A stretch of DNA of 26,531 nucleotides. Origin: Thermoproteota archaeon. GTDB taxonomy: Archaea > Thermoproteota > Nitrososphaeria > Nitrososphaerales > Nitrososphaeraceae. The position numbers and the translations under genes are program-made. Position 1 is the stretch's first letter. Each line of letters begins with the position of its first letter. The stretch is from positions 1-26,531 of the forward strand of contig JBKPPX010000296.1 in assembly GCA_046733815.1 (NCBI GenBank), read 5' to 3'. The notes under the pieces were generated by a model. The model ran no database searches. It was not told the DNA's origin and was given only the letters and a program-made list of their open reading frames with translations. Positions 19,933-21,527 of this stretch are shown in pieces.

Positions 19933-20414
19933 TATTGTATCAAAGTCGAAGATGGCATCCAATAATCTTTTTTATACTTATTTTCCGTCCAAATCATGGA
20001 AAGTTCTATGTCGGTTAAAATAATTCATTTCATACTCTGACAGTGTATTAGATCTCGAGCCTATTCTTGCGAGAATTCAAACATCAAATTATTGCTCGGA
20101 AAGCAAGCCAACAGGGATATGCAATGGCCCAAATTACATTACTAAGGTAAAGAGAAACTGCGAAACGATAATCAAATAGAGCAATCAAAGCTTCTAATGC
20201 TATATCAACCACTACGAATAGAAGTAAATGATAGACTTGCAATAATCTTGTAACATCTGGTATGAAATATGATTGATAGTCAATACCGTTGTTAATTATG
20301 TATTTCTTTGGTATTTTGATAATAGGCAAAAAATAAAAAACACCAGACTAGCCAATCAAAACTTGATCCCAGAATCCTGCACTTGCTCATGCTGGCCGCC
20401 TTTAGAAGTTGCGA

Positions 20415-20729
20415 TCACTTCATTCTAACTTTAATAATATCAGTATGATCTTCTAATCCAATTTTCAGCCTGAAGCGCAGCCATCTCCATGAACTTACAG
20501 CAGTACTTATAATTTTGCCAGCTTTGAGTTCATCAAATGCTTGGTTAACCTGATCGAATTTATATTTTCCACAGACCACTGATTGAATTTTTCCAGACCT
20601 TGCCAGAGCGACTAGGTTCACCAAATCGGCAAACTTATTCCTGTGCGCACGTATCCTCAGTTGCTTTCTAAATAAATTGATAGCTAATGTTCTATCTAAA
20701 AAAATATCTGAAATGCAAGAACTTGGCAA
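20415..20729 (-). pseudogene. C-terminal remnant of a Zn-dependent (MDR) alcohol dehydrogenase
   Basis: FADLVNLVALARSGKIQSVV..KYKFDQVNQAFDELKAGKII..AV matches the C-terminus of MDR ADHs; the catalytic N-terminal three quarters are absent. Confidence 0.7.
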
Positions 20730-20742
20730 GCACTTAGCTATA

Positions 20743-20750
20743 TTTATAAG
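20743..20750 (+). promoter_or_regulatory. TATA box of the C/D sRNA
   Basis: TTTATAAG ending 21 nt before the sRNA terminal stem. Confidence 0.6.
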
Positions 20751-20771
20751 AATAATTTGCTTGAGATTTAA

Positions 20772-20859
20772 GGGATGCTGATGAAGATTCGGAAGAGCCG
20801 ACTGATGAGTAGTAATTAAACTAGCAAATGACGAGGATTATGAGTTCCTGAGGCATCTC
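20772..20859 (+). ncRNA. Dual-guide box C/D methylation-guide sRNA
   Basis: Terminal stem GGGATGC/GCATCTC; C box TGATGA 20779-84; D' CTGA 20802-05; internal hairpin TAGT/ACTA; C' ATGACGA 20828-34; D CTGA 20848-51; both guides match recognisable RNA targets. Confidence 0.88.
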
Positions 20860-21229
20860 ATTATAAATAGGACTAGATTCATACTAACAAAGACAACTAA
20901 GGACAGACCAGAAAAAAGGAAGAATTAGAACTAATTCCTTTGGGCTACAATTAGTCAACAGATAACACAGTTATTAATTACAAGATTATGCAAAATAAAT
21001 TTCAAGAATCCAGCGTTTGAATTATCTGCTGTAGTAGACATGAAAAACACATATTATTATAGCAAATAAACGGGACCTCCTTATCTATTATTATGTCAAA
21101 GGGCATAAGTGACGATAAATTTATGAATTATACTTTATAAAGAAAATTTCTTTATTACTTTAAAATAGGGTTTATTTTTGTATAACACATTGAGGAACTG
21201 ATCTAATCTAATGAGATCCAGACAAATAA

Positions 21230-21370
21230 GATAATAATCACCTCGTAAAATACTTCTACAAGAACATGATGGCATTAGATATTCTGAATATTGGACAGGT
21301 AGTCAGACAAACAGAAGACAACATCGTTATATCTAGTCAATACAATTATAGTTTTAATGTCCCAGATTAG
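21230..21370 (+). pseudogene. Possible remnant of a small beta-barrel (PRC-like) hypothetical gene
   Basis: Open frame YKNMMALDILNIGQVVRQTEDNIVISS..YSFNVP looks protein-like but is preceded by an in-frame stop. Confidence 0.3.
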
Positions 21371-21527
21371 AGATAGATAAAACAAATAGATAGGTATGAA
21401 TATTATATTAAACATAGAATATATGGAATTATTGAAGTATAAAGTAGATAGGATGCATCATTATCTACATTAGAACTCTTCCTGCTTGGTCTAATAAAAT
21501 ATAGGTGCGAGCGCATATTTGGTAATT

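Follow-up and report, generated by a model that had tools for sequence, protein, structure and literature searches.

A box C/D sRNA of Nitrososphaeraceae with a D' guide predicted to direct ribose methylation at the C2510 equivalent of 23S rRNA

Which RNA is read by an 11-nucleotide element that stands directly before a CUGA box in a contig of the Nitrososphaeraceae, and what would it do there? The window analysed here is the whole stretch of 26,531 nucleotides, which corresponds to contig C296 of a 2.26-Mb incomplete Nitrososphaeraceae metagenome-assembled genome (MAG; 464 contigs, 72% complete). It holds an 88-nt dual-guide box C/D sRNA on its plus strand at 20772–20859. The first-pass annotation had proposed that the element aims at a segment of the large-subunit rRNA, that it would place a 2'-O-methyl group on the equivalent of E. 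coli C2510, and that it may be a deep archaeal counterpart of the eukaryotic snoRNA U49/SNORD49. Here, we argue from comparisons with related 23S rRNA genes, an alignment of homologues, genome surveys and Rfam models that 20791–20801 probably serves as the D' antisense element in a box C/D sRNA of an uncultured, ammonia-oxidising soil archaeon, that this sRNA has a gene and promoter of its own, and that it directs formation of Cm at the C2510 equivalent of 23S rRNA. The sRNA is previously uncatalogued, and the mechanism of guided methylation that it would use is already known and remains unchanged. A search of the literature for a catalogue of box C/D sRNAs of ammonia-oxidising (thaumarchaeal) archaea found none.

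Architecture and genomic setting of the sRNA

The box order C–D'–C'–D is complete, and D' and C' are conserved in position in 30 homologues. The RNA, all features of which lie on the plus strand, is closed by a terminal stem in which GGGAUG (20772–20777) pairs with CAUCUC (20854–20859). RNAfold pairs 20772–20779 with 20852–20859, and in homologues the stem is preserved by compensatory changes on both strands (GGAUGC/GCAUCC, UGAUGUC/GACAUCA, GGAACGC/GCGUUCC, GGAUCC/GGAUCC and GAAGCC/GGCUUC). Box C, CUGAUGA (20778–20784), begins with C where the consensus (RUGAUGA) has a purine, and its counterparts in homologues read CUGAUGA, CUAAUGA or CCAAUGA. The spacer between box C and box D' comprises 17 nt (20785–20801), of which the 5' part, AGAUUC (20785–20790), has no complementarity to 23S rRNA and the remainder is the D' guide GGAAGAGCCGA (20791–20801), so the extra bases adjoin box C. 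Box D' (CUGA, 20802–20805) reads CUGA in 26 of the 30 homologues and CCGA in the other four, in the same place after GCCGN. It is followed by a D'–C' linker of 22 nt (20806–20827), predicted to fold into a small hairpin that pairs 20810–20813 with 20820–20823, and by box C', AUGACGA (20828–20834), which is represented in the same place by GUGAUGA, AUGAGGA or GUGACGA in homologues. The second half is completed by the D guide GGAUUAUGAGUUC (20835–20847), a 13-nt spacer, and by box D, CUGA (20848–20851), assigned from the sequence and its homologues. A UGAUGA that overlaps box D' was considered as a genuine C-type box and rejected, as homologues do not have it.

Archaeal sRNAs are usually about 50–70 nt long with spacers of about 12 nt (PMC7994747; PMC7229835), and the loop that corresponds to the linker typically measures 3–9 nt. 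The present sRNA is longer (88 nt), its two spacers measure 17 and 13 nt, and its linker extends over 22 nt and contains a hairpin. It thus falls outside the compact format, from which the 17-nt spacer and the 22-nt linker are a real departure, and its own format is mildly unusual and resembles that of eukaryotic snoRNAs. According to an older study, as cited in PMC7229835, spacers longer than 12 nt are inhibitory. This is contradicted by the Sulfolobus solfataricus C/D RNP, which is fully active with spacers of 21 and 23 nt (PMC7229835), and we therefore do not count the 17-nt spacer against function.

Upstream of the RNA lies a TATA-like box, TTTATAA (20743–20749, plus strand), with its centre about 26 nt from where the terminal stem begins. 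Homologues carry A/T-rich TATA-like motifs at a comparable distance upstream, and TTTATAA is thus likely, as judged from its sequence and position, to be the archaeal promoter of a stand-alone sRNA gene. The sRNA sits in a region of about 1.6 kb (19933–21527) in which neither strand has an open reading frame of 105 aa or more; the longest frame there, of 104 aa with a TTG start, runs on the minus strand at 20415–20729. A strict pattern scan of the window returned no other C/D candidates. No Rfam family reaches its gathering threshold in the window, and the sub-threshold matches are to SNORD49, sR41, sR-tMet and sR1.

Is the machinery to use such a guide present in the host? The genes for fibrillarin (294 bits) and Nop5 (228 bits for the Nop domain) lie next to each other on the same strand of another contig of the host MAG (C423, 832–2534), which is the usual arrangement of the archaeal Nop5–fibrillarin operon. 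Genes of the L7Ae family are represented in the host by matches of 68 and 39 bits. The host therefore encodes the enzyme that a guide of this kind would need.

Near-identical or related copies of the sRNA occur in public records labelled Nitrososphaeraceae, Nitrososphaera, Nitrosocosmicus and Nitrosopolaris, and the copy from the same genus stands in a record labelled only "Nitrososphaeraceae archaeon". The public sequencing runs that contain the window are soil metagenomes, which are DNA-like data sets. For the runs that contain the 101-nt RNA region the kind is unstated; they hold it on one or two short contigs at a depth of about 2–9, with no usable read ends or depth profile.

The D guide aims at a different RNA. 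It pairs with positions 30–40 of the host elongator tRNA-Met over 11 bp, including one G–U pair; the tRNA gene lies on contig C75 (912–988) and contains GACUCAUAAUC, which places the pairing in the anticodon arm. This is the only good site found for the D guide, and a comparison with rRNA gave no convincing one. In the window, N+5 falls on U33 and N+6 on C34. The core of the D guide, GAUUAUGAG, is conserved in homologues, and among those that carry it the gap between core and box D is 2 nt in 52, which puts N+5 on C34, and 3 nt in 24, including the host genus, which puts N+5 on U33. The 2-nt gap is also found in the Rfam consensus of Pyrococcus sR41, and the 3-nt gap looks like a one-base insertion specific to a lineage, on the evidence of these alignments. 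The closest known relatives of the D guide in function are the tRNA-Met Cm34 guides Pyrococcus sR41 (RF01126), Haloferax sR-tMet (RF02163) and human SNORD97/SCARNA97. The D half of the window sRNA contains (G)AUUAUGAG, which can pair with the CUCAUAAU anticodon loop; both sR41 and sR-tMet are weak Rfam matches to the sRNA. C/D-guided formation of Cm34 in elongator tRNA-Met is established in human (PMC6601510). Compared with these Cm34 guides, the register of the window sRNA is off by one base, with N+5 on U33.

Two public MAG contigs labelled Nitrososphaeraceae or Thermoproteota (L044 and L069) have a 5' half like that of the window sRNA, with the GGAUGC stem, box C, the D' guide and the D' box, combined with a D spacer that is wholly different and longer. 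In these RNAs, the rRNA guide has been kept and the second guide swapped.

The D' guide and its 23S rRNA target

The element GGAAGAGCCGA lies directly 5' of CUGA and is the exact complement of UCGGCUCUUCC, as had been read from 20791–20805 in the first-pass annotation. The 23S rRNA gene is absent from the host MAG assembly (72% complete, 464 contigs), and the guide was compared with the 23S genes of eight relatives: three members of the host family, one of which also shares the host's genus, and five representatives of other families in the order. Each of the eight genes contains a single site, within GAUGUCGGCUCUUCCCAUCC, that pairs perfectly with the D' guide (11/11 Watson–Crick pairs) and corresponds to E. 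coli 2506–2516. A register-aware scan of the relatives' 23S rRNA in which G–U pairs were allowed found no other D'-guide site of similar quality.

The fifth base before box D', G20797, pairs with C2510, and the N+5 pair is a G–C pair. The segment GAUGUCGGCUC is standard 2502–2512 in the annotated E. coli 23S rRNA, again with C2510 as the N+5 partner; the annotated copy runs one base behind the standard numbering, an offset revealed by the Um2552/G2553 landmark. The distance from C2510 to G2553 of the A-loop is 43 nt in E. coli and in the relative from the same genus alike. On these two grounds, the earlier assignment of the segment to E. coli 2502–2512 and of N+5 to C2510 is confirmed.

Where is this nucleotide in the ribosome? 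The earlier description placed the target in the peptidyl-transferase loop. In the sequence, CGGCUC at 2507–2512 is complementary to GAGCUG at 2576–2581, and from this complementarity and the standard 23S structure we take C2510 to lie within the 5' strand of helix 90. U2506, the first base that is paired by the guide, is presumably the sole paired base within the peptidyl-transferase ring. The placement in the loop thus holds for U2506, while C2510 itself would lie in helix 90, beside the ring. In archaea, helices 90–93 have been reported as a hotspot of guide-directed methylation (PMC4644070).

Could the complementarity be a coincidence, or could the real target be another RNA? The host genome contains one more copy of UCGGCUCUUCC, in the sense strand of an ilvN-like open reading frame on contig C142, and the corresponding mRNA would be a candidate; by chance, however, any 11-mer is expected to turn up about once in this genome. 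For a fixed 11-mer, the probability of a perfect site in ~4.45 kb of rRNA is only ~0.001. Moreover, the guide is invariant in at least 12 genera and several families, for which the invariant 23S site is the common feature. We regard both a chance match and a different target as very improbable, and take 23S rRNA as the target in the following.

Conservation, distribution and predicted function of the guide

To follow the D' guide through evolution, we aligned 30 distinct homologues from 12 genera that had been selected via the D half only (D guide and box D), so that the D' guide was not fixed by the search; by BLAST, homologues are found in many genera of the family. Counting backward from box D', positions 3–10 of the guide are invariant (30/30), and G occupies position 2 in 28 homologues and position 11 in 25. 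Position 1 may be any of G, U and A. Further toward box C, spacer positions 12–15 and 17 are variable, while 27 of 30 have G at position 16, and the C–D' spacer itself is 17 nt long in 27 of the 30. Linker and 7-nt C' box together measure between 11 and 41 nt, and their length varies without any conservation of sequence. For archaeal and eukaryotic C/D RNPs, the duplex between guide and substrate has been measured to be no longer than 10 nt (PMC7229835). As far as can be read from the alignment, the conserved positions 2–11 match this 10-bp pairing footprint exactly, and the D' element is very likely a functional guide.

Two homologues from one genus of the family (g10; L165 and L166) have GGAAGAGCCAA before CUGA. 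Their spacer is 20 nt long, and a G-to-A change at position 2 puts a mismatch opposite C2507. In four MAG contigs labelled Nitrososphaera (L071, L091, L106 and L118), the linker has grown by repeats of the GAUGAUGA or GACGAC type into a long hairpin, for instance tgatgatcatcatgatgatgacgactacgac. These repeat expansions show that large insertions are tolerated in the D'–C' linker.

The alignment also bears on the identity of box D'. The bases at 20798–20801 read CCGA, a variant that some homologues do use as box D', and a minimal-length parse picks it in the five homologues that have A at position 1, as in the window. Were this the true box, AGAUUCGGAAGAG would be the guide. It would pair with 23S rRNA over no more than 7 bp, which is too few, and would shift N+5 to the equivalent of U2514. 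In 23 of the 30 homologues, position 1 is G or U and such a box is impossible; the conserved box is C(U/C)GA after GCCGN, and the conservation of 20798–20801 as guide positions would be left without a reason. A box D' at 20798–20801 is therefore extremely doubtful, and CUGA at 20802–20805, with C2510 as the N+5 partner, is retained as box D'.

How widespread is the guide? With the search pattern ATGA, 2–8 nt, GAAGAGCCG, N and CNGA, matches were found in 141 of 401 sampled genomes of the order, among them 94 of the 111 genomes of the host family and also members of several other families; a control with the reversed pattern gave about 10 matches. The pattern occurs in 0 of 112 genomes of another large family of the order (f13), and a relaxed search in five complete genomes of that family returned one match, which lacks a C box. 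An apparent second paralogue ("class B") was rejected: it is the single copy of a Nitrosocosmicus-labelled genus, in which the two matches per genome overlap at one site. The RNA of this Nitrosocosmicus type is shorter, at about 65 nt. In a phylum-wide sample of 150 genomes, the guide was found outside the order only in one family (f31; 3 of 5 genomes), as compact sRNAs with 12–13-nt spacers and 3-nt loops like those of a record labelled Bathyarchaeia. A scan of public genomes listed archaeal matches that are almost all from Nitrososphaerales. Bacterial matches in the same scan numbered at least ~35, against ~30 estimated by chance, and those listed are without a C'/D half and resemble ordinary, often coding, sequence.

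Does the element direct methylation, or does it only pair? It might act mainly or only as a folding chaperone that pairs with 2506–2516 of pre-23S rRNA and, during assembly, keeps the 5' strand of helix 90 open; methyl transfer would then be slight or absent. A pairing footprint would be conserved in the same way for pairing alone as for pairing with methylation, and conserved guide–target pairings without methylation have been discussed for Pyrobaculum (PMC6009581). However, the Pyrobaculum cases that are taken as chaperone-only have a mismatch at N+5 (PMC6009581), while N+5 is a standard G–C pair in every homologue of the sRNA studied here, and methylation of this ribose has been measured in human and Arabidopsis, where an equivalent guide is present. 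A 17-nt spacer could reduce catalytic efficiency, if the older observation cited in PMC7229835 applies, yet the S. solfataricus RNP works with long spacers (PMC7229835). Methyl transfer is favoured by the invariant N+5 G–C pair and by the methylation measured at this ribose in eukaryotes, and we consider a role restricted to folding unlikely.

We thus return to guided methylation as the preferred reading. The analysis shows the sequence and its unique complementarity to the 23S rRNA of relatives, the position of the target in E. coli numbering, how the guide is conserved and how widely it occurs, and the presence of the protein machinery; we infer that the sRNA is expressed, that it is assembled into an RNP and that it directs methylation. 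The sRNA would assemble with L7Ae, Nop5 and fibrillarin, and the D' spacer would pair with U2506–C2516 (E. coli numbering) of nascent 23S rRNA ahead of helix 90 formation. About 10 bases (positions 2–11) would be in use, with the 5–6 extra spacer bases next to box C left unpaired. Fibrillarin would then methylate the 2'-OH of the cytidine opposite the fifth guide base before box D', giving Cm at the C2510 equivalent, while the other half of the sRNA would be aimed at the anticodon loop of elongator tRNA-Met.

What would such a guide mean for the organism and for the guide system? A Cm at the C2510 equivalent is predicted beside the peptidyl-transferase ring in a mesophile, which is expected to have few guides. 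The footprint of positions 2–11 is an independent, natural match to the 10-nt pairing limit that was found in vitro, and, with its conserved 17-nt spacer, a natural archaeal lineage seems to tolerate long spacers and to retain them.

Comparison with known guides at the site

Other archaeal guides are known for the same stretch of 23S rRNA. Methanopyrus kandleri sR45 and Thermoproteus tenax sR150 are compact C/D sRNAs whose D guides pair with 2506–2516, inside the methylation hotspot reported for helices 90–93 (PMC4644070, supplement). Their register, by our own count, is shifted by one, with N+5 on the 2509 equivalent and not on C2510, and their spacers of ~12–15 nt and short loops differ from the 17-nt C–D' spacer and 22-nt linker of the window sRNA. 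We recomputed the targets from the sRNA sequences in the supplement of Dennis et al. 2015 (PMC4644070), and a search with the guide strings GGAAGAGCCG and their neighbours found guides for the 2509 equivalent only, with none in the C2510 register in the seven species covered. Closer in register are the compact Bathyarchaeia-like guides (L095 and L194–L196), which have the same GAAGAGCCG core, followed by one base and CUGA, and the same N+5, but differ in the 12–13-nt spacer, the 3-nt D'–C' loop, the terminal stem and the D guide. No description of these compact C2510 guides was found in the literature searched.

In human, Arabidopsis and Plasmodium, the equivalent position is methylated and has been assigned to U49/SNORD49. 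For human 28S Cm4456, formerly numbered Cm4426, the assigned guide is SNORD49A/B (PMC9941101). In Arabidopsis, RiboMeth-seq detected 25S Cm2880, for which the assigned guide is U49; it precedes G2923 of the A-loop by 43 nt (PMC8053127), which equals the spacing between C2510 and G2553. Plasmodium PFS9, with 28S Cm3240 as its site, is matched in a published list to human Cm4426/U49 and to AtU49, with no yeast counterpart (PMC2656528). U49/SNORD49 (Rfam RF00277) resembles the window sRNA in having its antisense element in the D' (5') half, on LSU CGGCUCUUCC, with the same cytidine as target. In the Rfam alignment, the D' box of the model falls on CUGA at 20802–20805, and the guide register is the same. 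The human, Arabidopsis and Plasmodium sites and the model alignment together bear out the earlier statement that U49/SNORD49 guides the same site in the same register. The C2510 equivalent is accordingly one more predicted site of ribose methylation common to archaea and eukaryotes (human, plant and Plasmodium).

Is the archaeal sRNA also related to U49 by descent? SNORD49 is the best sub-threshold Rfam match in the window, but its 19.6 bits fall far short of the gathering score of 37. The model recurs on two homologues (20.7 and 19.7 bits), of which one is of the Nitrosocosmicus type and one is compact and Bathyarchaeia-like. Boxes and guide account for all of the likeness, with nothing alike outside them, and even within the guide the Rfam consensus has U at positions 1 and 6 where the window has A. 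The archaeal RNA differs further in having a second functional-looking guide, to tRNA-Met, and a putative promoter of its own, whereas human U49 is listed as intronic (PMC2656528). A guide is dictated by its invariant target, and likeness of the guides, which supports functional equivalence, would arise from common descent and from convergence on that target alike. The suggestion of a deep archaeal counterpart of SNORD49 stands as far as function is concerned; as a claim of homology it is not supported by a score far below threshold and a likeness that consists of boxes and a forced guide.

A bolder reading would derive the C2510 guide of Nitrososphaerales and Bathyarchaeia and U49/SNORD49 from one guide RNA of the archaeal ancestors of eukaryotes, with the format seen in Nitrososphaeraceae showing how a compact sRNA may have grown toward a snoRNA. 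Such a eukaryote-like format would comprise the 17-nt spacer, the long structured D'–C' linker, the length of 88 nt and the combination of a U49-like and a SNORD97-like guide in one RNA. We consider this scenario of common descent quite unlikely. In conclusion, the comparison of targets and registers supports the archaeal RNA as a probable functional equivalent of U49/SNORD49, with the same cytidine of the large-subunit rRNA read from the D' half of a box C/D RNA in both.
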